64,000 bases of DNA, from the NCBI GenBank assembly GCA_029262005.1, contig JAJDAG010000012.1, forward strand, positions 3,161 to 67,160, given 5' to 3'. Of this stretch, positions 38,388 through 53,702 are shown in pieces. Position numbers and translations under genes: made by a program. The DNA comes from Candidatus Zhuqueibacterota bacterium (GTDB lineage Bacteria > Zhuqueibacterota > Zhuqueibacteria > Oceanimicrobiales > Oceanimicrobiaceae). The notes beneath the pieces were generated by a model. The model searched no databases. It was not told the DNA's origin and was given only the letters and a program-made list of their open reading frames with translations. How positions within the stretch are numbered: position 1 is the first letter of the stretch; each line of letters starts with the position of its first letter.

Positions 38388-39698
38388 ATGGAAACAGCAA
38401 CGCTTAATCCACGAGTCACAAAAAAGCACAACAAACATAGCCAGGGTGCTAAGCTGCAAACCGCGCAACCAGCCGGTGGTTTCTGGTATTTCCCGTGGCA
38501 ATATCGGCAAACGGTGGTGATCATGGTTTTGCTACTGCTCTCAGGTTGGCTCCTGGGGATTGTCACAGAGGGAAGCGGCCTGACGATTCCGCCATGGCCG
38601 ATGAACCTATACCTGCTCATTGGGTTTGCCCTCACACTAGCCCTCATGGCTCTCACGGCTGAGAACAACCGGGCCGTGGCCTGGCTGGCCAGCATCCCGG
38701 TTGCCATTTGCTCTATTGCTTTCATGGGGCTACTTTCTTTAATTGCCGGAATTTTGCCGCAAGATCCTGAGTTTGGCGGCACCTGGGTGCGACTCCTTGG
38801 TTTCAATTATGTTTTTACCAGTTGGCCATTTGCATTCAGCATTCTTTTTTTACTAAGCAATCTCGGCATTGCCGCCTTCAGGAGGTTGTACACTTTCAAG
38901 AGTCAAAATCTTCGTTTTGTTCTCAACCATGCAGGCTTGTGGATTGTAATCGCAGGCGGAACCATCGGCGCCAGCGACCTCCAACGTTTGCGAATTTATG
39001 TAAATGAAGGCGAAACAACCAGCCATGCCATGCGACAACAGCGGCAAGCAGTCAGCATGCCTTTTGACATTACTCTGCAAGACTTCCGCATGGAACTCTA
39101 TCCTCCGAAAATGACATTTGTTGACCGTCAGACCGGCTCCGTGCTTCTTGAAGGACCCGCAGCCAGCGTTGAAACAATAAAGGGCGCTTCTCTGAACATG
39201 AGCGGCTGGCAAGTGCAAGTGCTGAAATTCCTTCCCACTGCCATCTTTCGCAACGGCGGTTACGAAGCCTCTTCCGAAGTAGAGGCAGCGCCGGCCGCAC
39301 AAGTTCAATCCATTAACACCTACACTCGCGAAACGAAAACCGGGTGGATCAGCAGTGGCAGCAGCTTTGCCAGAGCCCGTTATTTTGAAGTGGGACATGC
39401 AGTTTTGGTCATGACAACACCGCAGCCTAAAAAATATCAGTCTGAAGTTATTTTGCGCGAGGCCGGCCGCGAGCGACATGAAACACTTGAAGTAAACAAA
39501 CCCATTGCCATTGCCGGTTGGAAACTGTACCAACTGTCTTATGATGAAAAATTAGGACAGTGGTCGAAACTCAGCATCATCGAGGCCATTCGTGATCCCT
39601 GGTTGCCTTTTGTCTATCTCGGGATTGCCATGCTGATGCTTGGCACGTTACAAATATTATGGTCCGGAACCAGAATAAGAGGAGTCAACGAATCATGA
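38388..39698 (+). CDS. ccsB: Cytochrome c biogenesis protein Ccs1/ResB-like (System II); the exact start is uncertain
   Basis: N-terminal TM helices, large periplasmic region, C-terminal TM; ATGA-overlapped with the following ccsA. Confidence 0.55.
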   Translation: METATLNPRVTKKHNKHSQGAKLQTAQPAGGFWYFPWQYRQTVVIMVLLLLSGWLLGIVTEGSGLTIPPWPMNLYLLIGFALTLALMALTAENNRAVAWLASIPVAICSIAFMGLLSLIAGILPQDPEFGGTWVRLLGFNYVFTSWPFAFSILFLLSNLGIAAFRRLYTFKSQNLRFVLNHAGLWIVIAGGTIGASDLQRLRIYVNEGETTSHAMRQQRQAVSMPFDITLQDFRMELYPPKMTFVDRQTGSVLLEGPAASVETIKGASLNMSGWQVQVLKFLPTAIFRNGGYEASSEVEAAPAAQVQSINTYTRETKTGWISSGSSFARARYFEVGHAVLVMTTPQPKKYQSEVILREAGRERHETLEVNKPIAIAGWKLYQLSYDEKLGQWSKLSIIEAIRDPWLPFVYLGIAMLMLGTLQILWSGTRIRGVNES

Positions 39699-40495
39699 CC
39701 TGGAACATATTCCCATATATCGTCGGTGGTACAATCGGCTTGTGGTCGGCTGGAGTTGGCCTGAGCCTCTTTTCGCCAAAAGCCAAACTGGCAAATTTAT
39801 TTAGCAAGCTGGCCTATCTCGCCGGCAGTCTGGTTGTCATCACTTTTGTTGTGATGCTTTGGCAGACTCTGGATCGTCCACCCATGCGCACGCTTGGTGA
39901 GACCCGTCTCTGGTATGCCGTATTTCTGCCTGTGGTCGGGTTTGCAGTGCACTATCGCTGGGGCATTAAGTGGCTCAATATTTATTGCGTAGCCCTTGCC
40001 AGCATGTTTTTGTGCATCAATTTAATGAACCCGGAAACTTATGATAAAGCTCTGATGCCCGCTTTGCAAAGCATCTGGTTTGTGCCACATGTTATTGTTT
40101 ATATGATTAGCTACGCGCTGTTGGCGGCTTCATCCCTTGTCGGATTTCACGGTGTATTTCTTTCATATAAGCAGCGGCCCATAAACGGCACACTGCGGCT
40201 GGCAGATCAGATTGTCACGCTGGGCTATGGTTTTCTTACCACCGGCCTGCTCTTCGGCGCTTTGTGGGCCAAAGAAGCGTGGGGACATTACTGGACCTGG
40301 GATCCAAAAGAAACCTGGGCCTTCCTCACCTGGATCGCCTATCTTGTGTTCTTGCACATACGCCACCATCACAAACAATCGCAGAAGCTCGCTTTGCAGT
40401 ATCTGGCATTTTCATTTATCGTCTTGCTGGTTTGCTGGTTCGGTGTAAACTACCTGCCATCAGCCAGTTACAGCGTGCATACTTACACGAATTAA
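39695..40495 (+). CDS. ccsA: Cytochrome c-type biogenesis protein CcsA (heme-handling WWD domain)
   Basis: WGHYWTWDPKETWAF (WWD motif); conserved His residues; start chosen at the ATG overlapping the upstream TGA. Confidence 0.8.
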   Translation: MTWNIFPYIVGGTIGLWSAGVGLSLFSPKAKLANLFSKLAYLAGSLVVITFVVMLWQTLDRPPMRTLGETRLWYAVFLPVVGFAVHYRWGIKWLNIYCVALASMFLCINLMNPETYDKALMPALQSIWFVPHVIVYMISYALLAASSLVGFHGVFLSYKQRPINGTLRLADQIVTLGYGFLTTGLLFGALWAKEAWGHYWTWDPKETWAFLTWIAYLVFLHIRHHHKQSQKLALQYLAFSFIVLLVCWFGVNYLPSASYSVHTYTN

Positions 40496-40620: not shown

Positions 40621-40649
40621 TTGACACGGATAGTTTATTCCTTTATATT
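40621..40649 (+). promoter_or_regulatory. Sigma70-like promoter (TTGACA-N17-TATATT) for the DUF4339-MinD gene pair
   Basis: read in sequence ~60 nt upstream of the ATG at 40712. Confidence 0.4.
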
Positions 40650-40711
40650 GTCATTTGCCGGCAACCCGGTTTCTGATAGCTGTTGCACCATTTCAAGAAA
40701 AGGAATTCGCA

Positions 40712-42013
40712 ATGGAGAATTTGTTCATCAAGGTTGATGAGAAGGAATTTGGCCCTGTCTCACTCAAAGAACTTAAGGATTTAGCAAAGGAAGGTAGCTT
40801 CAGTAGAGAGGATTATATCTGGAGTGAAGATTTGGATGAGTGGGTGCCGGCAGAACACACCGTTGAACTCAAAGATGTGTTCACTGTTAACACCAACGGC
40901 CATTTCAAAAAACGCATTTATGCTGTTGCAAGCGGAAAAGGAGGTGTTGGTAAAACGGTGATTTCTTCTTCAATCGGCGTTGGACTGGCTTCCATGGGGC
41001 AGGAAGTCATTATGGTTGATGCCGATTTTGGTGGTGCAAACATGCACACCTGCATGGGAATTTTGGAGCCTGAACTCACATTTTTCGATTTCTATACCTT
41101 ACAAAAAGAAACATTGAGTGATATTGTCCTGGACACCCCGGTTGAAAACTTGCGTATGATCAGCGGCGCTTGCGGTACACTCGGGCTGGCGAATCCCAAA
41201 TACTTTCAGAAACAGCGGTTTATCCGAGAGCTCAAGAAGTTGCAGGCAGATAGCATTCTCATAGATCTGGGCGCAGGTTCCGGATTTCATACCGTTGATC
41301 TTTTTCTGCTCGCCGATGAAAAAATCCTCGTTATGACGCCGGAGCCCACTTCTGTGTTCGAAGCCTTTGGCTTTATCAAAATATGTCTGCTGCGTGATTT
41401 GAACCGGCGTCTTAAAAAGTATCCAGAGGCTCTTGCGGTTTTGGCAAAAGACGGCATAAATAAGCCCAATAATATTCAGTTGACCATTGGCGATTTGATG
41501 ACCGAAATAGAAAAAATCGACGAAGAGGCGTTGAATATTTTTAAAGAAACGCTGGCCGGCTTTTCGCCAAAGCTCATATTGAATATGGTAAAGGCGCGCG
41601 ATGAAATTAAGGAAGGGCAGGCGATTCAAGCTGCTGCGCTAGATTTGCTTTGCATCAACGTGGAGCTGCTTGGCTACATTTCTTTCGATTTTCAAGTGAA
41701 GGCAGCGGTTAAAGCAATGAAGCCATTTTTGCTTTTTGACCCAAAAGCCAAAGCCTCGCAGGATCTGTCCGCCTTGATCAGGGTAAATCTGCTTGGCAAA
41801 AAAGGCGTGCGTGAGATTCTTGAACGACGGCGGTGGCGAAAATTGGTGGAAAACTACTCCCGTGAATATCCGGAACAAAATATTTTAGAAAATGGGACTA
41901 TCTGCTCGGTGCGCTGTTTCTATTGGGGTGATTGTGAATATGAGGATGGCGGCAGCCATTGCCCTGTGCGGCACCTTGAACCCGTTTTAAAGGAACGACT
42001 CGTGTCCTCTTAA
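40712..42013 (+). CDS. Fusion of an N-terminal GYF-like DUF4339 domain and a MinD/ParA-type P-loop ATPase, with a C-terminal Cys/His-rich tail (paralog 1)
   Basis: N-terminus FIKVDEKEFGPVSLKELKDLAKEGSFSREDYIWSEDLDEWVPAEHTVEL fits the DUF4339 W...GP.S...L..L...G.I...W...W..A pattern; deviant Walker A VASGKGGVGKT; DADFGGANMHTCMG; tail CSVRCFYWGDCEYEDGGSHCPVRH. Confidence 0.6.
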   Translation: MENLFIKVDEKEFGPVSLKELKDLAKEGSFSREDYIWSEDLDEWVPAEHTVELKDVFTVNTNGHFKKRIYAVASGKGGVGKTVISSSIGVGLASMGQEVIMVDADFGGANMHTCMGILEPELTFFDFYTLQKETLSDIVLDTPVENLRMISGACGTLGLANPKYFQKQRFIRELKKLQADSILIDLGAGSGFHTVDLFLLADEKILVMTPEPTSVFEAFGFIKICLLRDLNRRLKKYPEALAVLAKDGINKPNNIQLTIGDLMTEIEKIDEEALNIFKETLAGFSPKLILNMVKARDEIKEGQAIQAAALDLLCINVELLGYISFDFQVKAAVKAMKPFLLFDPKAKASQDLSALIRVNLLGKKGVREILERRRWRKLVENYSREYPEQNILENGTICSVRCFYWGDCEYEDGGSHCPVRHLEPVLKERLVSS

Positions 42014-42122
42014 CCTTTCAGCACATTCAACCTGCCGACTCCGGCAGCTTATTTCTAATGTGAAGAAGTCTCCCCGATCGTCCGATGCTATAATTAAATC
42101 CAGTTCAATTTGAGGTTATGGC

Positions 42123-43337
42123 ATGCAGGATATTATAATAAAGGTTGAGGCCAACACCCTTGGCCCGCTTTCTCCCAAAAAAGTCCGCAATCTGATCAAG
42201 CAGGGCGTGTTCTCTTCAGCACATTTGGTTTGGAGCAATTCAGAAGGAGAGTGGGTGCCGGCATGGAGCGTGCCCGAGCTCAAAGAAATGTTCAATCTTA
42301 CTCATGCCAAGGCTGCGGGCCTCAGCAAAGTGCTCGCTGTTGCCAGTGGCAAAGGCGGTGTCGGGAAAACGGTTCTGGCTTCCTCTCTGGGCGTAGGGTT
42401 GGCCTCAGCCGGGCGTACGACCACAGTCGTGGATGCTGATTTTGGCGGTGCTAACCTGCATACGGCTATGGGCGTTCTTCAGCCGGAATATAATTTCGAT
42501 GACTTTTTTTCTAATAGCGGCAAACCACTTTCAGATTTTTTAATCGAAACGCCTGTCGCAAACCTCACCATGATCGGTGGCACATGTGGTTCTATTCTGA
42601 CCACCCCGAAATATCATCAAAAGCAGCGTTTCATAAGGACTTTGCGCAAGTTGACCGCAGAATATGTCGTTCTCGATCTGGGTGGCGGTTCCCAATTTAA
42701 TGTCATTGATTTTTTTCTGCTTGCTGATGAGCCGATTGTTGTCGTAACGCCTGAATTGCCCTCGGTGCAGGAGGCCTTTTCGTTTATAAAAATGGCCTTG
42801 CTGCGTCGTCTTGTGCGGGTGTTTAGACATGAACCCGCTGTCCTGGCTTTGGTAAAAGAAGGTGAGGTAAATCGGCCCGGGCATATCATTAAAACAATGG
42901 AAGATATTTATCACTGTTTAACCGAAATAGATATTGGCCTGGCCTTAAGGTTTCGTTCAACCCTCAATTCATTCGCGCCAAAACTTGTCCTGAACAAACG
43001 CTCGAAACGCAGTGACGACGAGGAAGCTGCTGCTATTCAAACTGCCGCATTCGAACTTCTTTCCATTGAAGTCGACTACCTCGGTCACATTTCGTTTGAT
43101 GAAAACGTCGAGAAAGCCATCCAGCAGTTTCGGCCGTTTCTGCTGCACTCTCCAGCAAGCCAGGCTGCAAGAGACATAGAAAAATTGATAGATGGTCATT
43201 TGCTTGGCCTGGGCAGCCTGCGGCGCACTTTGCGGAAACGCAAATGGCAGCAGGAGCTTAATTCAATAACTGAATACTATCCGGAAGTTAAGTTGGTAGA
43301 TGAAGTGCCAATTATGGATATCGTTAAGTCAAAGTAG
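42123..43337 (+). CDS. Fusion of a GYF-like DUF4339 domain and a MinD/ParA-type ATPase (paralog 2, lacks the Cys-rich tail)
   Basis: IIKVEANTLGPLSPKKVRNLIKQGVFSSAHLVWSNSEGEWVPAWSVPEL; VASGKGGVGKT; DADFGGANLHTAMG; collinear with paralog 1. Confidence 0.6.
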   Translation: MQDIIIKVEANTLGPLSPKKVRNLIKQGVFSSAHLVWSNSEGEWVPAWSVPELKEMFNLTHAKAAGLSKVLAVASGKGGVGKTVLASSLGVGLASAGRTTTVVDADFGGANLHTAMGVLQPEYNFDDFFSNSGKPLSDFLIETPVANLTMIGGTCGSILTTPKYHQKQRFIRTLRKLTAEYVVLDLGGGSQFNVIDFFLLADEPIVVVTPELPSVQEAFSFIKMALLRRLVRVFRHEPAVLALVKEGEVNRPGHIIKTMEDIYHCLTEIDIGLALRFRSTLNSFAPKLVLNKRSKRSDDEEAAAIQTAAFELLSIEVDYLGHISFDENVEKAIQQFRPFLLHSPASQAARDIEKLIDGHLLGLGSLRRTLRKRKWQQELNSITEYYPEVKLVDEVPIMDIVKSK

Positions 43338-43645
43338 CTTTACCGCGAGGGTGTGCCGCTGTGTTTCGGAGGGCAAAAGGGTGCTGCGTTTTTTCACCGT
43401 GTTGGCTGCCCGGTGCAATTGTGCCGTCGGCATGAGGCGCAATAGAAAGCGTGCTGTAGCACCCGTTTTTCCCATGGACTCACCGAGGTGCTGGTTTTTA
43501 CCTTGCATTTGTTTGCTCTCACCAATATATTTCCTTATTCCGAAACACACATTAGTTTTGTTGCCTAAGAAGAGGTTGTCGGAACTTAGGGTGTTTTTTT
43601 TTGTAAAATAGAGAATTCTTTCCACCGTAACTCTGGAGTCTGTGA

Positions 43646-44407
43646 ATGACAATCTTGTTGAACCTGACGTTTTTTTTACAACAAACGAACCCACAGCAAA
43701 TGCTGTCACGCAGTCCCATCGAACTGGTTTTGAATGCCGGCGTAATTGCACAAGTCGTACTCGGTATCCTTGCATTTTTCTCAATTATTTCCTGGGGAAT
43801 AATTTTAGATAAATTGCGCGTGTTTCGAAGAGTCCGCAAAGAATCCGACAAATTTTTAAACGCTTTCCAGCAAAAAAAAGGTGCCCGCGAGATAATGCAG
43901 GCAAGCCGTTTGTATCCTGGAAATCCGTTTGCAGCCGTTTACAAAGAAGCTTTTTGGCTTCTCAATCAGAGCGAGGGCAAGCCCGCTGGCGGCAGCCTGG
44001 GTATGATGCGTGAGCCGACGCCGAAGCAAAATCACACATCTGAAGATTTGCTGCGCCTTTTTGATTCCGTAGCAACTCGGGAAGTTCTCAGGCTGGAAAA
44101 ACATCTCGCATTTCTCGCTACCACAGGTAGTGTCAGTCCTTTTTTTGGCCTCTTTGGCACGGTTTGGGGTGTGATGGGCGCGTTTCTTTCCATTGGTTTA
44201 ACCGGGTCAGCTGACATCAGCGTTGTTGCGCCTGGCATTGCAGAAGCTTTGATAACAACAGTTGCCGGGCTCGGAGCTGCGATTCCGGCGGTGATGGCCT
44301 ACAATTTCTTTGTTAGCAAGCTGAAACGAATCAGTGCTGAACTGGAGATTTTTTATTCAAATTTGATTGAAGCATTTGTCAAGAGGGAAGTGAATGAAGT
44401 CCGGTAG
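43646..44407 (+). CDS. tolQ: Tol-Pal/ExbB-type proton channel protein
   Basis: MotA/TolQ/ExbB pattern ...TTGSVSPFFGLFGTVWGVMGAFLSIG. Confidence 0.8.
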   Translation: MTILLNLTFFLQQTNPQQMLSRSPIELVLNAGVIAQVVLGILAFFSIISWGIILDKLRVFRRVRKESDKFLNAFQQKKGAREIMQASRLYPGNPFAAVYKEAFWLLNQSEGKPAGGSLGMMREPTPKQNHTSEDLLRLFDSVATREVLRLEKHLAFLATTGSVSPFFGLFGTVWGVMGAFLSIGLTGSADISVVAPGIAEALITTVAGLGAAIPAVMAYNFFVSKLKRISAELEIFYSNLIEAFVKREVNEVR

Positions 44408-44795
44408 CAGGTACACGAGTTTATCCGAAATAAACGTGACGTCCCTGGTAGATGTGACGTTGGTTCTGCTGATCGTTTTTATGATTACAGCCCCTCTCTT
44501 GCGCTCCGGCATGTCCGTTGATCTGCCGCAAACCATGGCTAAAGAAATCGATCCCGGCGAAGCCATTGTTCTCACTGTTGACAAAAAGGGTGCCTTGTTC
44601 TGGGATAAAGAGAAAATCGATTTGCTCACCTTAAGAGAGCGGCTGCAAAAACGGGAGGCAGCGAATCGGTTAAAGCCGATTCTTCTTCAAGGTGACAAAG
44701 AGGTCTACTATGGGCATGTCATTGAAGTAATGGACATTATTAAAGAGCTTGGCATTGGCAAGTTGGGCTTGATATTGAAGCCGCGACAACGGTAG
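44394..44795 (+). CDS. tolR: TolR/ExbD biopolymer transport protein
   Basis: EINVTSLVDVTLVLLIVFMITAPL single TM and conserved Asp; overlaps tolQ by 14 nt. Confidence 0.8.
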   Translation: MKSGSRYTSLSEINVTSLVDVTLVLLIVFMITAPLLRSGMSVDLPQTMAKEIDPGEAIVLTVDKKGALFWDKEKIDLLTLRERLQKREAANRLKPILLQGDKEVYYGHVIEVMDIIKELGIGKLGLILKPRQR

Positions 44796-44799
44796 CACG

Positions 44800-45426
44800 G
44801 TGAAAGCGAGCATTTTTTTTTCATGCGTTCTGCATCTGGCTCTTTTTGCCGCATTGGTTTTTTCACGGACCACACCCAGGCGGTTTGAAGGTTATCCAAC
44901 CGTTCTGCCGGTTGAAATTGTTGACTTGAAGCCGGTTTCTTTTAAGGCTCCTGAAGTTGAAAAAATCGCGCCGAAACGCCGAAGGGCACTGCCGCAACCT
45001 AAGGAATTGAAGGGTGTAACTGTTGAGAAAGCGAAAATTGAAACGGAGGAGCCTGAGGAGCGGCCACGCAAACAAGTTGAGAAACCTGAAAAGTCCGACA
45101 AAGGGAAATCTCTAGCCAAAGGGGAAAAAGTCAGACTTGACGTAAAGGAATTCCCCTTTTCCTATTACCTGGCCCTGCTGCAATCGCGAATTAACGCCAA
45201 TTGGGAGCCTCCATTCGGTGTTGCAGGACGTGTTGTTGTCTTCTTCAAGATTCAGCGAAATGGGCACCTGACCAATGTGTTGCTGGAATTAAAGTCGGGA
45301 GATTTTTTACTGGATCGTGCAGCAATGCGTGCAGTGACGCTTGCTGACCCGTTACCACCGCTGCCATACGACTTTTCTGAGCCGGCACTTGGTGTGCATT
45401 TTGAATTTGAACAGGCAAGAAATTGA
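44800..45426 (+). CDS. tolA: TonB-family C-terminal-domain protein in the TolA position
   Basis: N-terminal TM, Pro/Lys-rich linker, C-terminal YYLALLQSRINANWEPPF...LPPLPYDF TonB/TolA-type fold. Confidence 0.65.
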   Translation: MKASIFFSCVLHLALFAALVFSRTTPRRFEGYPTVLPVEIVDLKPVSFKAPEVEKIAPKRRRALPQPKELKGVTVEKAKIETEEPEERPRKQVEKPEKSDKGKSLAKGEKVRLDVKEFPFSYYLALLQSRINANWEPPFGVAGRVVVFFKIQRNGHLTNVLLELKSGDFLLDRAAMRAVTLADPLPPLPYDFSEPALGVHFEFEQARN

Positions 45427-45610: not shown

Positions 45611-46906
45611 TTGGCCGCGACTTCCCGCAATCTTGCTTGTAAATTTATTATCATCCTTGGCATATTGATTTTTGTTTCGGTTGAAAATGCCTTTGCGCAG
45701 ACCGATATTTACCTTAAAGTTCATTCACAGATATTTCAGCGCATGGAGATCGATTTGTATCCGTTTACTGCAGAGACTCAAAGTATGGATTCAGAGGTTT
45801 TGGCAGGGACAATTACTGAGGTACTCAAAAACGACTTGTGGATGTCCGGTTATTTTAAGGTAAATCTAAAGTACGGAGCGCCTGAAAACGGCAACGGTGT
45901 TGCTGAAAAAGGCGGGGCGCTAACCTCAGTGAACGGCACATTCAGTTTTGACGCCAATTCGGTCAGGCTCCAACCCAATGTGATCGACAATACTTCCGGG
46001 CGTTTTATAATCCGCACCGCCTATGACGAAGTGGCGGGGAATGAGCGCACGGCGATTCACCGCCTGGCCGATGATATTGTGTACACCCTGACCGGAGAGC
46101 CGGGCATCGCCAACTCGAAAATCGCTTACATTCATGAGGGTGAAGATGGAACGAAAGAGGTCGCTGTGATGGATTATGATGGGCACCGAGCTTCAATTTT
46201 GACCTCTGACAAGAATTTGAATCTCTCTCCGGCCTGGTCGCCGAATGGGCATAAAATTTGTTACACTTCTTTCAAAGATGATAACCCTAATCTTTACGTT
46301 TATAATCTGAAAACAAATACACAAATTCAATTGTCAGCGCTTCATGGGTTGAATTCAGCGCCGTCATGGTCCCCGGACGGTGCCAGACTGGCTATTACTT
46401 TGTCAAAAGACGGCAACGCTGAAATTTACATTCTGGATGTTGAGAAAAAGCAGTTGCAGCGACTTACATACAATCGGGCCATCGATTCTTCCCCTGGTTG
46501 GGCGCCATCAAATCGGGATATTGTTTTTACATCAGATCGTTCCGGTTCGCCCCAGGTCTATATTATGGATTCTGATGGACTGAATGTTCGGCGGCTGACA
46601 TTTGAGGGGAATTACAATGATTCCCCAAGCTGGTCGCCGCGCGGTGACAGAATTGCGTATGTGTCGCGTACCGATTCCGGCTTTGATATTTATACAATTG
46701 ATACCCTTGGCGAGAACAGGATGCGGCTTACTGACAGTGCGAAAAGCAACGAAGATCCGTGTTGGTCGCCAAACGGGTTTTCGATTGTTTTTAGTTCGAA
46801 CAGAAATGGTAAACGGGCGCTGTATTCAATGTTTTGGGATGGGACTGATCAAAAAAAACTAACCAATGTCGGCGTTAATTACATGCCGGCCTGGTCTACG
46901 CGTTAA
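45611..46906 (+). CDS. tolB: Tol-Pal system beta-propeller protein TolB
   Basis: repeated PxWSPDG blocks (SPAWSPNGHKI, SAPSWSPDGARLA, SSPGWAPSNRDI, DSPSWSPRGDRIAY). Confidence 0.85.
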   Translation: MAATSRNLACKFIIILGILIFVSVENAFAQTDIYLKVHSQIFQRMEIDLYPFTAETQSMDSEVLAGTITEVLKNDLWMSGYFKVNLKYGAPENGNGVAEKGGALTSVNGTFSFDANSVRLQPNVIDNTSGRFIIRTAYDEVAGNERTAIHRLADDIVYTLTGEPGIANSKIAYIHEGEDGTKEVAVMDYDGHRASILTSDKNLNLSPAWSPNGHKICYTSFKDDNPNLYVYNLKTNTQIQLSALHGLNSAPSWSPDGARLAITLSKDGNAEIYILDVEKKQLQRLTYNRAIDSSPGWAPSNRDIVFTSDRSGSPQVYIMDSDGLNVRRLTFEGNYNDSPSWSPRGDRIAYVSRTDSGFDIYTIDTLGENRMRLTDSAKSNEDPCWSPNGFSIVFSSNRNGKRALYSMFWDGTDQKKLTNVGVNYMPAWSTR

Positions 46907-46924: not shown

Positions 46925-47473
46925 ATGTTTCAAAGTTTTCGGTTGTCTTATGTGATAATTTTGTTAATTTTAGGCAGCGTTTTTTTTGGATGCGGCGGCA
47001 GTAAGGAAACTGTTAATTATGAGCCTCCGCCGGATCCTTTTCCAAGACCTGAAGAAGAGACTTTTACTGAACGCGCAAGCATGCCGATTGGTCCACCTGA
47101 AGTCGAGGAGCCGAAAAATGAATTGGTTAAGGCGGTTCCACTTATTCTGACAACCGTGAATTTTGACTTTAATCAATCTCGACTGACGGATGAAGCCAAA
47201 GCGCTTTTGGCACAAAACGCAAGCACGTTGCATGCTCACCCGGAAACGAATATTCGCATTGAGGGGCATTGCGATGAGCGCGGCACGGTTGAATTCAATT
47301 TGGCGCTTGGTGAGCGTCGGGCAATGGCTGTAAGAAATTACATGATTAACTTTGGTGTGCCCGCACGTAGAATGACAATTATCAGTTACGGAAAAGAACG
47401 GCCCGTGGATCCCCGGCATACTTCGGACGCATGGGCTGCTAACAGACGGGCAGAATTTATTATCCGAAACTAG
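46925..47473 (+). CDS. pal: Peptidoglycan-associated lipoprotein (OmpA-like domain)
   Basis: lipobox FFGCGG; NFDFNQSRLTDEAK...IRIEGHCDERGTVEFNLALGERRAMAV...ISYGKERP...NRRAEF. Confidence 0.85.
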   Translation: MFQSFRLSYVIILLILGSVFFGCGGSKETVNYEPPPDPFPRPEEETFTERASMPIGPPEVEEPKNELVKAVPLILTTVNFDFNQSRLTDEAKALLAQNASTLHAHPETNIRIEGHCDERGTVEFNLALGERRAMAVRNYMINFGVPARRMTIISYGKERPVDPRHTSDAWAANRRAEFIIRN

Positions 47474-47495: not shown

Positions 47496-48275
47496 ATGAA
47501 AACAGTTGCTTTGATTTGTGCTGCCATAATTCTGGGGGTTGGTTGCGCCCCTCAAAACAAACGCATCAATGCCACGGGCATGGAGATGGAAAACTTGCGT
47601 CGGGATATCCGTTTCTTGAAACAACAAAACTCACAACTGCTGCGTGAGCTGGATAGTCTCAAGAAGCAGTTCGGTGAAATCGACCTGGCCAATCGTAAAG
47701 TTCGGGCAGATTTGTCAGCCCGGATTGATGAACTGACGGACCAACTTGAATCCGTCCAAGGTAATTTAAAGGATACGAATTACCGAATGACTAGCTTTGA
47801 TCAGCGGGCACCAAGACCTGGTGTTGCCGAAAATGAGAAAATGAATATTGCTGAAAATGACAGCCTTAAGAGATTGACCAGTCCGCAGGCCCTGGCCGTA
47901 AACCAATCCCGGGCGCTTTACAATACTGCTTACCGGGACCTCTCCCGTGGTAATTATCGGTTGGCATTGGAAGGATTCCGGCAATTCGTTAAAGACTACC
48001 CAAACTCGGATTTGACGGATAATGCGCAATATTGGACAGGGGAAGTTTACTACGCGCAAGGTCGCTACCAGTTGGCCATTGAAGAATTTGAACGGGTGGT
48101 GAAATGGTATGGAACCGGCGATAAAACAGCCTCTGCCTTGCTTAAAATTGGATTTTCCTATTTGAATATGGAGGAAACTGAGCAAGGGAAATTGTATCTT
48201 GAGGAGATTGTGAAAGATTACCCTGGCTCCGATGAAGCGAGCAGAGCACAGGGACGACTTGCTTCTCTTAATTAG
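47496..48275 (+). CDS. cpoB: Tol-Pal system protein YbgF/CpoB (coiled coil + TPR)
   Basis: coiled-coil N-half, TPR C-half (ALYNTAYRDLSRGNYRLALEGFRQFVKDYPNSDLTDNAQYWTGEVYYAQGRYQLAIEEF), position after pal. Confidence 0.75.
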   Translation: MKTVALICAAIILGVGCAPQNKRINATGMEMENLRRDIRFLKQQNSQLLRELDSLKKQFGEIDLANRKVRADLSARIDELTDQLESVQGNLKDTNYRMTSFDQRAPRPGVAENEKMNIAENDSLKRLTSPQALAVNQSRALYNTAYRDLSRGNYRLALEGFRQFVKDYPNSDLTDNAQYWTGEVYYAQGRYQLAIEEFERVVKWYGTGDKTASALLKIGFSYLNMEETEQGKLYLEEIVKDYPGSDEASRAQGRLASLN

Positions 48276-48987: not shown

Positions 48988-49509
48988 ATGCATACTAAAA
49001 ATTATTCTCAATTCTTGTCAGTGGTGATTTTGACGTTTGTTGCTTGTGTGGTTTTCGCCGACGAAGACATCGACAAAGTTTTGGACAAAGAACAAGCCAA
49101 GTTACAAGCTGAAATCGAGCACAGCCTGGTTTCCCCTTGCTGCTGGAACATGACGGTTGATCAGCACGAATCGGGCACCTCAAGGCAAGTGCGTTTAAAA
49201 ATTGCAGATTTAATAAAGGCCGGTAAGAATAAAGAAGAGATTCTTGATTATTTCGTTGCGCAGCCGCAGTACGGTGAACGAATTCTTGCGACACCATCAC
49301 AGGATAACTGGCTGGGTAAATCCGCTTACTGGTTGATACCACTGTTCCTGGTCTTTGGAGGCAGCGTTGTGATTGTAGTTATTCGGAATTTGTCAAAATC
49401 CGGACAGGCGGTTGCACCCACTGCCGAACAAAAAATGACAAAGGGCCAGGCAGCGAGCAATGTTTACTCTCAACGCGTTGAAAATGAATTGAAAGAATTT
49501 GATACCTGA
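48988..49509 (+). CDS. CcmH/NrfF-like cytochrome c-type biogenesis protein with a variant Cys motif
   Basis: signal peptide; LVSPCCWNMTVDQHESGTSRQVRLKIADLIKAGKNKEEILDYFVAQPQYGERILATP parallels CcmH LRCPKCQNQSIADSNAP...GKSKKEIVDYMVARYGDFV but has adjacent CC instead of CxxC; C-terminal TM helix. Confidence 0.45.
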   Translation: MHTKNYSQFLSVVILTFVACVVFADEDIDKVLDKEQAKLQAEIEHSLVSPCCWNMTVDQHESGTSRQVRLKIADLIKAGKNKEEILDYFVAQPQYGERILATPSQDNWLGKSAYWLIPLFLVFGGSVVIVVIRNLSKSGQAVAPTAEQKMTKGQAASNVYSQRVENELKEFDT

Positions 49510-49934
49510 TGCCCAAACTCGCGCGAATGCATACTGCCGAACATCTCCTCTCTGCGGTGATGCGCAAACATTTTCACGCACCACGTAACCTTGAATTTCA
49601 TCTTGGCGAAAAGAAAACCAAGTGTGATTATGTTGTGCCCGGCCCGCTCTCTGTCGATGACATTCGCAAGGCTGAGCAGTTGGTAAATGAACAAATTCAA
49701 GCAGCACATCCCGTGACTGCTTTTAAAATTACCCGTAAAGAAAATACCGATTACGACCTTTGGAAAGTGCCGGAGACGGCTGAGGAAATCAGAATTGTTC
49801 GCATCGGGGATTATGATGCACAACCATGCAGCGGCGAGCATGTTTCTCTGTCGTCTGAAGTGGGCACTTTTCGGGTGGCCAGTTTTGAGATGCGCGACAA
49901 AGATCGGGTGCGCATCCGGTTTAAGCTAAATTGA
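49509..49934 (+). CDS. AlaX-S-like tRNA editing protein (alanyl/threonyl-tRNA synthetase second additional domain)
   Basis: zinc-binding motifs HTAEHLL and CSGEH at the expected spacing in a ~140-aa protein; TGATG overlap with the upstream gene. Confidence 0.6.
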   Translation: MPKLARMHTAEHLLSAVMRKHFHAPRNLEFHLGEKKTKCDYVVPGPLSVDDIRKAEQLVNEQIQAAHPVTAFKITRKENTDYDLWKVPETAEEIRIVRIGDYDAQPCSGEHVSLSSEVGTFRVASFEMRDKDRVRIRFKLN

Positions 49935-51128: not shown

Positions 51129-53702
51129 TCACACCACAAAGTTAACCAGCCTACCAGGAACCACAATCACTTTCCGCAGAGATTTTCCGCCCAGCCGATC
51201 TTTAATTTTTTGCATGGCCATATTTTCGAGCGTTGCCTTGTCGCGTGCCACATCGGTTGGTACCACAAGTTGGTCACGTAGCTTACCATTCACTTGAATA
51301 ACAATGGTTATTTCGTCGCGCTTCAAGGCGCTCTGGTCTGCCTGCGGCCATTTTTGTTTAAGGACAGCAGAGTCGTTACCAAGCAGGCGCCACAGCTCTT
51401 CGGCGATAAACGGCGTCATCGGTGACTGCAAAAGAGTCAGGTTCTCCAGCACCTTTTTTAGCAAAGGTGCATTTAATTTATGATTGCCGCGCTCACAATC
51501 TGTGCAATAGTCGGAAAGTTCATTGCTTAATTCCATGCAGGCTGCAACCGCCGTATTAAAATGAAATTTGAGAAAGTCTCTGGTGACGGAATCGATTTTT
51601 TCATTGGCCAGATGCCACAACTGTTTGTCGCGTTTGTTGAGACTTTCCAAGTCAATTGTTGTATCGGCTGTGGCGTTCACAACGTCCTTGTATTTTTGTA
51701 CAATATTCCACACACGGTTCAAAAAGCGATGGCCACCGCGTATACCTTCATCATTCCATTCTATTTCTTTTTCCGGCGGCCCCATAAAAAGTGTGTAAAG
51801 CCGCTCGGTATCCGTGCCATATTTATTGATGATGTCTGTCGGTGCCACGGTATTTTTTTTTGATTTGCTCATTTTCGCCAACTCGGATGCGAGCTTGTTA
51901 CCACAATGCGGGCAAGCATTGCCGTCGGCAACTTCATGGGATGGAATCCAGCCGTGTTCTTTGCAGCGGAAGGCCTGGTGCGTGATCATGCCCTGCGTAA
52001 ACAGACGCTTGAATGGTTCATCAAAATTGATCAGCCCCAGGTCGCGAACTGCTTTGGTGATGAAACGCGCATAAAGCAGATGCAAAATTGCATGTTCGAT
52101 TCCACCGACATATTGGTCAACCGGCAGCCATCGGTTAACCATCTCAGAGTCAAATATTTTTTCATTATCTTGCGATGAAATATAGCGCATGAAATACCAG
52201 GATGAATCGACAAAAGTGTCCATTGTGTCGGTGTCGCGACGGGCTGCTGCGTTGCATTTCGGGCAATTAACTTCATAGAATTCCGGTATTTCGGCGAGAC
52301 CTTTTTTACCGAGAAATTCGACGTCGGGCAGTTGAACAGGCAAGTCGGCTTCCGGCACCGGCACAACGCCACATGCTTCGCAGTGAATCATGGGAATGGG
52401 TGTGCCCCAATAGCGCTGTCTGGAAATGAGCCAGTCTCGCAGGCGAAAGTTGACTTCGCCTTTGCCCAGTCCTCTTTCTTGCAAAAATTGAATGAATTTG
52501 CTGATGCTTTCTTTGCCGGCAGCCAGACCGTTAAATTGACTGGAGTTGATCATCACTACGTCACCCGGAAAAGCTACGGTCATGTCTTCCGGATTTGTTG
52601 TTTGGTCCTCGGTTGCAATGACGGCAATCACCGGCAACTGAAATGCCCGGGCAAATTCAAAATCGCGTTGATCGTGCCCTGGAACTGCCATGATGGCGCC
52701 GGTGCCGTATCCCATTAAAACATAGTCGGCAATCCAAATCGGTATTTTTTCGTCATTGACCGGGTTAACACAATAAGCCCCTGTGAACTTTCCGGTTTTT
52801 TCACGCTCTGTCTGCTGCCGTTGGATATCACTTTCTGCGCTTACTTCTTTTACGTAAGCCTGAACTTCTGCGAGTTGCTCTTTTGTTGTCAGTTTTTCAA
52901 CCAAAGGATGCTCGGGTGCCAAAACCATAAACGTGACGCCAAAAATGGTATCCGGTCGCGTCGTGAACACTTCAATGGATTCATCCAGTCCATCAATTGG
53001 AAAGTTGACCCGAGCGCCCTCGCTGCGGCCAATCCAGTTTTGCTGCATGGTTTTTACGCGTTCCGGCCAGTGTTCGAGTTTATCCAGATCATCCAGAAGC
53101 TCCTGGGCGTATTGGGTGATTTTGAAAAACCACTGCGTCAGATTTTTTTTGGTAACGTCAGAGTTGCAGCGCTCACACTGGCCGTCAACCACCTGTTCGT
53201 TGGCTAAGACTGTATCACAACCCGGGCACCAGTTCACTTGCGATGCCTGGCGATAAGCCAATTTTTTGTGAAATAATTGAATGAAAAGCCACTGGTTCCA
53301 CTTGTAGTAGGCCGGATCGCAGGTGGCCAGCTCACGCCGCCAATCGAAAACCACGCCCCACTGACGAAACTGTTTTCTAAAAGATTCGATATTTGTATAG
53401 GTCCACTTTTTCGGGTGAATACCACGGTCTATTGCCGCATTTTCGGCCGGTAGGCCAAAGGCATCATATCCCATAGGATTGAGCACATTGTGGCCGTTCA
53501 TGAGCAAATAACGGCTGTAGGCATCGCCAATGAGCCAGTTGCGGCCATGTCCGACGTGCATTTCTCCGGATGGATACGGGAACATGTTGAGGTAATACAT
53601 TTTGTTGGAAGTTGCGTCGAGGTCTGGCTCAAAGAACTTATTCTCCTGCCAGTAATCGCGCCATTTTTCCTCTATGGCTCTGAAATCGTAAGAATGGCCC
53701 AT
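51129..53702 (-). CDS. leuS: Leucyl-tRNA synthetase
   Basis: class I HMGH-type motif (PYPSGEMHVGHGRNW), KMSKSKKN, CP1 editing domain, 857 aa. Confidence 0.95.
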   Translation of the reverse strand: MGHSYDFRAIEEKWRDYWQENKFFEPDLDATSNKMYYLNMFPYPSGEMHVGHGRNWLIGDAYSRYLLMNGHNVLNPMGYDAFGLPAENAAIDRGIHPKKWTYTNIESFRKQFRQWGVVFDWRRELATCDPAYYKWNQWLFIQLFHKKLAYRQASQVNWCPGCDTVLANEQVVDGQCERCNSDVTKKNLTQWFFKITQYAQELLDDLDKLEHWPERVKTMQQNWIGRSEGARVNFPIDGLDESIEVFTTRPDTIFGVTFMVLAPEHPLVEKLTTKEQLAEVQAYVKEVSAESDIQRQQTEREKTGKFTGAYCVNPVNDEKIPIWIADYVLMGYGTGAIMAVPGHDQRDFEFARAFQLPVIAVIATEDQTTNPEDMTVAFPGDVVMINSSQFNGLAAGKESISKFIQFLQERGLGKGEVNFRLRDWLISRQRYWGTPIPMIHCEACGVVPVPEADLPVQLPDVEFLGKKGLAEIPEFYEVNCPKCNAAARRDTDTMDTFVDSSWYFMRYISSQDNEKIFDSEMVNRWLPVDQYVGGIEHAILHLLYARFITKAVRDLGLINFDEPFKRLFTQGMITHQAFRCKEHGWIPSHEVADGNACPHCGNKLASELAKMSKSKKNTVAPTDIINKYGTDTERLYTLFMGPPEKEIEWNDEGIRGGHRFLNRVWNIVQKYKDVVNATADTTIDLESLNKRDKQLWHLANEKIDSVTRDFLKFHFNTAVAACMELSNELSDYCTDCERGNHKLNAPLLKKVLENLTLLQSPMTPFIAEELWRLLGNDSAVLKQKWPQADQSALKRDEITIVIQVNGKLRDQLVVPTDVARDKATLENMAMQKIKDRLGGKSLRKVIVVPGRLVNFVV

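Follow-up and report, generated by a model that had tools for sequence, protein, structure and literature searches.

What do two adjacent genes do that lie between ccsBA and tol-pal and that each fuse a GYF-like domain to a MinD/ParA-type ATPase? The genes, here called A and B, are found in a stretch of 64,000 nucleotides from a Candidatus Zhuqueibacterota bacterium (contig JAJDAG010000012.1), which is referred to as the window in the following. ParA/MinD ATPases are general-purpose positioning engines of bacteria, and only a handful of their cargos are known. In A and B a candidate cargo adaptor, the GYF domain, is fused in cis, so that the client should be easier to fish out. As to their biochemical class, A and B are near certain to be ParA/MinD (SIMIBI) P-loop ATPases of the MinD/FlhG type; among these they fall into a large "orphan" clade without ties to flagella or the Min system. 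The reading that we favor, with a probability of roughly 60%, is that both proteins are ATP-dependent, dimerising positioning or adaptor switches which recruit a proline-rich client and which may have acquired a lineage-specific link to the cell envelope. Their architecture, in which a GYF head is combined with a clade-specific insert and with a novel C-terminal tail of four cysteines (Cys4 tail), is a new variant among the MinD/FlhG-type switch ATPases and not a categorically new system.

A pair of paralogous GYF-ATPase fusion genes

The open reading frame (ORF) of gene A has possible starts at 40655 and 40712. The ATG at 40712, which is preceded by a Shine-Dalgarno-like AAGGA, gives a protein of 433 amino acids and agrees with the N-termini of the homologues (MENLF). 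A protein identical to the gene A product is present at NCBI (P0001, on a 75-kb contig). The products of A and B can be aligned over their whole length with 46% identity across 404 amino acids (E = 2e-126) and are thus paralogues. The two genes and the parts of gene A are as follows.

40712 to 42013, plus strand: gene A, 433 amino acids, GYF_2 head, FlhG/MinD-like ATPase, basic helix and Cys4 tail
40712 to 40894, plus strand: GYF_2 domain of A, residues 1-61 (PF14237, 44.5 bits, E = 1.3e-11)
40913 to 41791, plus strand: ATPase core of A with helical insert, residues 68-360 (motif alignment, FlhG alignment, structure model, Foldseek)
41792 to 41869, plus strand: basic amphipathic segment of A, residues 361-386, LGKKGVREILERRRWRKLVENYSREY (structure model, family consensus)
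41897 to 41980, plus strand: Cys4 tail of A, residues 396-423, TICSVRCFYWGDCEYEDGGSHCPVRHLE, with C398, C402, C408 and C417 (family alignment, logo)
42123 to 43337, plus strand: gene B, 404 amino acids, GYF_2 head (residues 1-57) and FlhG/MinD-like ATPase core (residues 69-360), tail-less

The ATPase core belongs to the MinD/FlhG branch

Both proteins contain the deviant Walker A motif VASGKGGVGKT with the signature lysine K76 and with K81, the switch I motif DADFGGAN (D103, D105) and an intact Walker B motif DLGAG (D185; all in gene A numbering). The columns of these three motifs are invariant in the family alignment including A and B, and every nucleotide-binding and dimer-signature residue is retained in both proteins. 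The P-loop models ParA, CbiA and AAA_31 of Pfam score above their gathering scores for A as well as for B. Membership in a defence system was also considered and rejected, as no PADLOC matches were obtained; with their catalytic motifs intact, the two proteins are not predicted to be inactive.

The best sequence matches in the Protein Data Bank (PDB) are Geobacillus FlhG (4rz2/4rz3, E = 1e-20) and Pseudomonas FleN (5j1j), followed by MinD. Structure prediction leads to the same relatives. An AlphaFold2 model of A, built from an alignment of 111 sequences, has a mean predicted local distance difference test score (pLDDT) of 91.6 and a predicted template modelling (TM) score of 0.84. The model of B (mean pLDDT 88.8) shows the same fold, its C-terminus past residue 390 being of low confidence. 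In a Foldseek search FleN and FlhG ranked at the top (target TM score 0.79-0.89), MinD next and McdA, Soj and BcsQ thereafter; FleN, FlhG and MinD were all found with a probability of 1.00 and target TM scores of 0.75-0.89. The FlhG alignment covers only residues 68-224 and 312-352 of A. Since it skips the residues between 224 and 312, we assign a clade-specific helical insert of about 50 amino acids to this region (residues ~225-311), where the model places helices at 238-249, 259-269 and 271-283.

FlhG (YlxH) and FleN (PDB 4rz2, 4rz3, 5j1j, 8p53), the proteins closest to A and B by sequence and fold, are MinD-like ATPases which control the number and placement of flagella. They share with A and B the signature-lysine deviant Walker A motif, the DxD of switch I and a C-terminal helix at the membrane-targeting position. 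However, the identity amounts to only about 24%; A and B add the GYF head and the insert, A in addition the Cys4 tail, and ccsBA and tol-pal flank the pair in place of a flagellar gene cluster, in which flhF would lie upstream and fliA or che genes downstream. MinD likewise has the same fold and motifs, to which the GYF and tail modules are additions on the side of A and B.

The best-scoring NCBIfam models are minD_arch and minD_bact, with about 71-85 bits against cut-offs of 202-213. For minD_bact (TIGR01968), A reaches 71.5 and B 67.9 bits (cut-off 212.9), for NF008079 50.8 and 48.2 bits (508), for MrpORP 42.7 and 48.7 bits (450) and for ApbC 29 and 34.4 bits (348), a comparison that is based on MinD, MrpORP and ApbC models. 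Neither minC nor minE is present among the annotated ORFs of the window or among the called or recurrent neighbours of the related loci inspected. In the same way, no flagellar genes were found among the annotated ORFs of the window, beside about 30 loci of the family or beside the nearest GYF-less relatives. By the scores far below the NCBIfam cut-offs and by the lack of a flagellar or Min context, A and B are therefore not canonical FlhG, MinD or Mrp proteins. This corrects a recurrent mis-annotation, as homologues are frequently labelled "flagellar biosynthesis protein FlhG".

The GYF head

The GYF_2 model of Pfam (PF14237/DUF4339) matches residues ~5-53 with 44.5 bits in A and 36.1 bits in B, against a gathering score of 25.8. 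Furthermore, the head aligns over 54 amino acids to the nuclear magnetic resonance structure of the GYF domain of GltJ/AgmX (7z3c, E = 4.4e-7). In the model of A it adopts the GYF fold of four strands (residues 4-8, 11-16, 35-38 and 43-46) and two helices (18-27 and 51-61). Thus, the description given in the initial annotation of this stretch, namely adjacent paralogous genes for deviant-Walker-A MinD/ParA ATPases of 433 and 404 amino acids, each with a DUF4339/GYF-like head, was borne out in full, including the Pfam comparison that it had proposed. The outcome which it had named as refuting, namely a missing GYF match along with a grouping among canonical FlhG or MinD proteins with flagellar or Min partners, did not occur. 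It had also stated that no function is described for this domain combination; in agreement with this, no paper on a GYF-MinD/ParA fusion was found in the literature searched.

The GYF domain of Myxococcus GltJ binds a proline-rich segment of AglZ via a non-canonical beta-sheet surface, and bacterial GYF domains are mostly N-terminal and often coupled with a zinc ribbon as a switch module; fusions to ParA/MinD proteins are not mentioned in that work (PMC11135422). With GltJ, A and B have in common the homologous GYF head, its predicted four-strand, two-helix fold and its N-terminal position, and GltJ resembles A in carrying a cysteine-rich putative metal module within the same polypeptide. On the other hand, GltJ is part of the gliding machinery and a membrane protein resembling TonB/TolA, whereas in A and B the domain is fused to a soluble ATPase. 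The zinc ribbon of GltJ is of the CxxC...CxxC type and connected to the GYF domain by a flexible linker, while the cysteines of A are spaced 3-5-8 without any CxxC and are located about 340 residues from the GYF domain, past the whole ATPase, in a tail that also occurs independently of GYF.

The fused GYF head also sets A and B apart from the orphan ParA/MinD positioners MipZ, PomZ, McdA, ParC/PpfA and BcsQ. The concept of an ATP switch serving one cargo via a specific adaptor is the same, but those positioners use the nucleoid or a pole as matrix and mostly have an adaptor that is a protein of its own, whereas in A and B the candidate adaptor is provided in cis.

The basic helix and the Cys4 tail

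In the model of A, a helix comprising residues 367-385 follows directly after the last core helix. It has the family consensus LLGKKGxKEIxEKRKWRK, is very basic and shows a hydrophobic moment of about 0.7. The helix occupies the position of the membrane-targeting helix of MinD and FlhG, to which we infer that it is equivalent. It differs from that of MinD in being highly charged and in not forming the end of the protein; in A about 48 further residues follow. The "KKG" and the hydrophobic start presumably resemble the start of the membrane-targeting sequence of E. coli MinD, which we take as a lead only.

The tail of A has the spacing C398-x3-C402-x5-C408-x8-C417, which within the pair is found in A only. 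From 158 tail-bearing sequences the motif I-C-S-x-x-C-F-Y-W-G-D-C-E-Y-Q-x-G-G-x-P-C-x-V-R-H-L-E-P was derived, in which the four cysteines and the tryptophan are conserved to 100% and the two glycines to 92-98%. The initial annotation had described a Cys/His cluster confined to the first gene. This holds for the four cysteines, but the trailing histidine (His421 in A) is conserved to only about 80%. AlphaFold2 predicts the tail with a pLDDT of about 87-93 and almost no regular secondary structure, as would be typical of a knuckle organised by a metal.

No Pfam model matches the tail even at E <= 10, and no relative was found in the PDB by sequence or profile. A homology search with the tail alone was uninformative, with three fragments as its only matches. 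No zinc-ribbon model of Pfam matches A or B, and because a CxxC is missing, the tail is neither a zinc ribbon nor a module of the GltJ type. Judged by the alignment, it is a new, nearly invariant module that is common to many orphan MinD/FlhG-like ATPases. Most likely it would hold a metal, Zn or possibly Fe-S, and act as a docking or regulatory module.

The tail is also modular, as it is found without GYF and GYF without it. An exhaustive profile search gave 28,989 matches at E <= 1e-3, of which 1,633 reached E <= 1e-30. When the 149 best representatives (50% identity) are sorted by architecture, GYF, ATPase and tail are combined in 4, GYF and ATPase in 11, and ATPase and tail without GYF in 32; in the other 102 the ATPase stands alone or with other modules.

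Distribution, duplication and reciprocal tail loss

Many full-length homologues are present in metagenomes and metagenome-assembled genomes, which are assigned to candidate division KSB1, Candidatus Zhuqueibacterota, Calditrichaeota or simply "bacterium". Apart from the FlhG label, which is used by JGI, they carry names such as "DUF4339 domain-containing protein" or "P-loop NTPase". The metagenomes were scanned with a Walker-A-trimmed alignment. A scan of genome contigs with the full alignment was keyed on the generic Walker A motif; among the matches listed, mostly distant MinD/FlhG-like proteins were found, which serve as outgroup architectures only.

Most members of the family are solitary genes. 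In a neighbour-joining tree (200 bootstrap replicates) these form an older clade, within which a duplicated lineage is nested that splits into A-type and B-type clades. Support is 97.5% for the duplicated lineage (A+B), 93% for the B clade, 84.5% for the core A clade and 100% for the grouping of the B gene of the window with P0124. According to this tree, A and B go back to a duplication within one KSB1 sub-lineage, the solitary gene being ancestral; the tail is ancestral as well and was lost by the B gene of the window.

The latter forms a sub-clade with P0292, P0124 and P0293, which likewise lack the tail, and all four have the C-terminal motif YPEV+LVDEVP in common. Since this sub-clade has a common replacement C-terminus, B represents a conserved variant rather than a broken gene. 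No remnant of a decayed tail was detected 3' of B in any reading frame. The opposite case also exists: in locus L172 and in the pair P0052/P0294 the A-type copy is tail-less and the B-type copy tailed. At least one copy retains the tail in all pairs examined. Such reciprocal loss suggests that A and B may act together, e.g. as a heterodimer which needs one tail.

Linkage to tol-pal

In the window, the pair is flanked by the following genes, assigned by Pfam.

38388 to 39698, 5' of gene A: ResB/CcsB
39659 to 40495, 5' of gene A: CcsA
43646 to 44407, plus strand: tolQ
44394 to 44795, plus strand: tolR
44800 to 45426, plus strand: tolA/TonB_2
45611 to 46906, plus strand: tolB
46925 to 47473, plus strand: pal
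47496 to 48275, plus strand: cpoB-like TPR gene

The position between ccsBA and tol-pal, which had been recognized in the initial annotation, is thus confirmed. The genes tolQ-tolR-tolA-tolB-pal-cpoB begin 181-418 bp 3' of the family gene or genes in nine of twelve loci of the duplicated lineage (the window, L084, L085, L089, L166, L167, L169, L170 and L171). In the older clade, 14 loci have a downstream flank of 4.7 kb or more, and none of them adjoins tol-pal. The suggestion of a spatial-organisation or envelope-associated system therefore remains plausible, with some support from the linkage, but only as a lineage-limited trait. An assessment from A-type and older homologues according to which the neighbourhood is not conserved had to be given up for the duplicated lineage once B-type loci were compared.

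The junction with tolQ is retained although at least five different upstream flanks occur at the linked loci (ccsBA, glyoxalase/SLT-LysM, Nramp, DUF2194 or a third copy of the family). All four tail-less B genes adjoin tolQ. One of them, P0293, is located directly 5' of tolQ on a 403,469-bp contig of GCA_029261995.1. The A-type gene P0009 is not linked to tol-pal but lies behind genes for an M16 peptidase and an SLT-LysM protein; it is probably on the same contig, in which case B would have stayed with tol-pal when the two copies were separated.

Two loci with unusual arrangements were noted. At L089 (3042-3242), the A-type gene is separated from tolQ by an ORF of 66 amino acids, the product of which consists of a GYF domain of the B kind alone (MQDIFVKVQENTIGPLSEEKIKVLIDQGVF...), apparently the remainder of a B copy after loss of the ATPase. 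At L167 (1-3724), three tandem genes of the family precede tolQ: first an A-like copy without tail, which is truncated by the end of the contig, then P0025 and P0043.

Proposed mechanism and points against it

Taken together, we propose that ATP binding would bring A and B into a sandwich dimer. The dimer would expose the basic helix and the tail, so that these could bind the membrane or a partner, and would display two GYF heads, by which a cytoplasmic proline-rich client could be recruited or sequestered. ATP hydrolysis would reset the switch. In evolutionary terms, a solitary ancestral gene would have moved next to tol-pal in one KSB1 sub-lineage and would have been duplicated; B would have stayed locked to tolQ and lost its tail, which was retained by A. 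Both the cargo and what the tail does we infer. Envelope morphogenesis (Tol-Pal, CpoB, peptidoglycan remodelling, MreB/RodZ) is the most likely process served, and this is the weakest step of the proposal. The retention of one paralogue beside tol-pal leads to a concrete, testable hypothesis, namely that in this uncultured phylum the constriction of the outer membrane is spatially controlled.

A number of observations weigh against this proposal. The cytoplasmic loop of TolQ contains no conserved proline-rich stretch that could be a GYF ligand, the Pro/Lys-rich part of TolA is periplasmic, and no candidate ligand, partner or cargo was found for A and B. The two binding functions proposed, of the helix for the membrane and of the tail for a metal, are deduced from sequence only. 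Co-transcription of B and tolQ is not implied, as tolQ has its own conserved promoter-like block. The tol-linked loci share a wider synteny that includes the unrelated genes for an M16 peptidase, CcmH, tRNA_SAD and leucyl-tRNA synthetase (LeuRS); because of this extension to unrelated genes, part of the adjacency may reflect shared ancestry. At two loci of the duplicated lineage (L168 and L172) tol-pal is absent altogether, and in the older clade, which is the larger one, the neighbourhood is not coherent. Finally, DnaJ and GrpE fusions and GroES, Hsp20 and Lon neighbours of relatives indicate proteostasis instead.

A far more specific scheme can be formulated. In this scheme, a tailed A and a tail-less, tol-pal-locked B would form an ATP-dependent heterodimer as a metal- or redox-gated positioning system of the envelope machinery in KSB1/Zhuqueibacterota, the GYF heads of which place or time constriction by Tol-Pal and CpoB, and the whole orphan clade (~1,600 clusters at 50% identity) would be spatial regulators of actin/Hsp70-fold and envelope machines. 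We consider it improbable in this form.

Alternative explanations and the wider clade

The alternative that holds up best takes the tol-pal adjacency as inherited gene order and places the real role of the proteins in proteostasis or in the actin/Hsp70-fold cytoskeleton, i.e. in DnaK- or MreB-associated assemblies. It has its basis in other lineages, in which this ATPase core together with its insert is found in fusions with other modules. Among 40 long relatives, five carry a RodZ-type HTH_25 domain, four TPRs, two MreB, two a DnaJ J-domain and one GrpE, and a receiver-domain fusion is seen in P0233 (core-fusion proteins flagged: P0168, P0205, P0206, P0233, P0150, P0217 and P0272). Gene neighbours fit the same picture. 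A gene for a J-domain+HTH_25 protein lies 3' of the core gene in Halobacteriovoraceae, Anaeromyxobacter and Holophagae (L022, 8896-9660; L009; L011), and Hsp20 and Lon genes are found 3' of the solitary gene at four older-clade loci (L098, L102, L106 and L107), as parts of a block TrkA - Hsp20 - Lon - UDP-glucose pyrophosphorylase (- AsmA-like). A stand-alone gene for a GroES-like (Cpn10) protein of 94 amino acids comes right after the A-type gene at L169 (9311-9595) and L172 (7214-7498). The lack of tol-pal linkage in the older clade and the promoter-like block of tolQ itself can also be counted here.

However, each of these associations is confined to few loci with differing partners, and none is present in the window. 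In addition, the junction of B and tolQ has outlasted several independent rearrangements of the upstream flank and, in one genome, the apparent separation of A and B. Thus, we regard a role in proteostasis or the cytoskeleton in place of the envelope as doubtful. The fusions and neighbours may nevertheless have a common theme, namely partners of actin/Hsp70-fold proteins. On the side of the preferred reading, the MreB, RodZ-type HTH_25 and TPR fusions and the SLT-LysM neighbours among the relatives form an envelope and cytoskeleton theme. As a lead, this evidence indicates either cell-shape and envelope machinery or else chaperone partners.

Another explanation holds that the Cys4 tail carries an iron-sulfur (Fe-S) cluster, so that the proteins would serve as Fe-S carriers like Mrp/NBP35, or would sense oxygen or the redox state, rather than act in positioning. 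Many SIMIBI relatives, such as NifH, Nbp35, CooC and Get3, do bind metals via cysteines. The top Pfam model for the pair is PF10609, "NUBPL iron-transfer P-loop NTPase", which scores above its gathering score, and the four cysteines of the tail are invariant without a CxxC zinc knuckle. In keeping with such a role, KSB1 members are reported to be mostly anaerobes or facultative anaerobes (PMC11683472).

Similarity to Mrp/NBP35/ApbC proteins is, however, restricted to the P-loop match and the presence of conserved cysteines. In A the PF10609 match is limited to the generic P-loop part (model positions 3-74 of 246), and with 29-49 bits for the MrpORP and ApbC equivalogs, A and B stay about 300-400 bits short of the cut-offs (348-450). 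The core CxxC of these proteins is absent from A and B; the cysteines of A are at positions 114, 154, 225, 314, 398, 402, 408 and 417. The fold is closest to FleN and FlhG. Moreover, the tail-less proteins B, P0124, P0292 and P0293 are conserved together with all other features, and therefore the core function does not depend on the tail. An Fe-S carrier or sensor is thus unlikely.

It is still less probable that A and B are simply the FlhG or MinD of the host with decorative extensions: the sequence and structure rankings, the two minD models, the JGI labels and the flagellar genes of some KSB1 clades (PMC9012183) would fit this, but the scores of about 71-85 bits against 202-213, the helical insert absent from FlhG and MinD, the GYF domain in place of an FlhF-activating peptide and the lack of flagellar or minC/minE neighbours at about 30 family loci, as of flagellar operons around the nearest GYF-less relatives, speak against it. 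The peptide in question is a DQAxxLR-type motif at the N-terminus of FlhG which activates FlhF; the sequence contains no such motif, its first 61 residues being the GYF domain.

Local DNA signals

Three signals were located around the two genes.

40621 to 40649, plus strand: sigma-70-type promoter-like site TTGACA-N17-TATATT(G) 5' of gene A, 11 of 12 consensus positions
42032 to 42047, plus strand: weak hairpin resembling a terminator, within the 109 bp that separate A and B, 6-bp stem with 5 G-C pairs and poor T-tract
43501 to 43531, plus strand: promoter-like block CCTTGC-N19-TATATT in the B-tolQ spacer (spacer alignment, six genomes)

The site 5' of gene A had already been proposed as a promoter. 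Promoter-like sites are not in excess in this region (3 found against 4.1 expected from shuffles). The block is kept at the same position 5' of the A-type orthologues at L169 and L001, and in part at L084, and for this reason we take the site as probably a real promoter. Terminator-like sites are no more frequent in the region than in shuffled sequences.

In the spacer between B and tolQ, CCTTGC-N19-TATATT is the sole strongly conserved block of the alignment. It is unique within the window and is found 5' of tolQ at eight of the nine linked loci (besides the window L084, L085, L089, L166, L167, L170 and L171), and it is probably the tol-pal promoter. The TATATT(G) box is identical in this block and in the site 5' of gene A, a hint as to the consensus that promoters have in this lineage. 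A structured RNA or riboswitch in the spacer was not detected (folding z-score -0.33, no Rfam match at E <= 1), and the whole window contains no tRNA genes and no Rfam family at the gathering score.

Other genes in the window and at related loci

On the 3' side of tol-pal, CcmH (48988-49509) is followed by an ORF of 141 amino acids (49509-49934) and by LeuRS on the minus strand (51129-53702). The 141-aa ORF is the positional counterpart of a tRNA_SAD (AlaX-like editing) gene at L084, L169 and L170. Because this gene order is common to the three loci and the window, macro-synteny extends across the genomes.

At L169, the GroES-like gene sits in the slot that is held by B in the window; a groEL gene was not called in the stretches of L169 and L172 that were fetched. 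A large S8 subtilase is encoded 5' of the older-clade gene at six loci.

The first part of the window is occupied by one long co-oriented block for polysaccharide utilisation of the glycosaminoglycan (chondroitin/hyaluronan) type (92-35843, plus strand). It encodes five sulfatases, two PL8 lyases, one of which has a Por_Secre_tail of the type IX secretion system (T9SS), and a Laminin_G_3 protein which also has a T9SS tail. Two GH88 proteins, KduI, a KduD-like SDR protein, DUF1961 and DUF4861 proteins and a TonB-dependent receptor are further products of this block, together with a TRAP transporter, a KDPG aldolase, a PfkB kinase and an anSME-like radical-SAM/SPASM protein with a terminal SEC-C motif.

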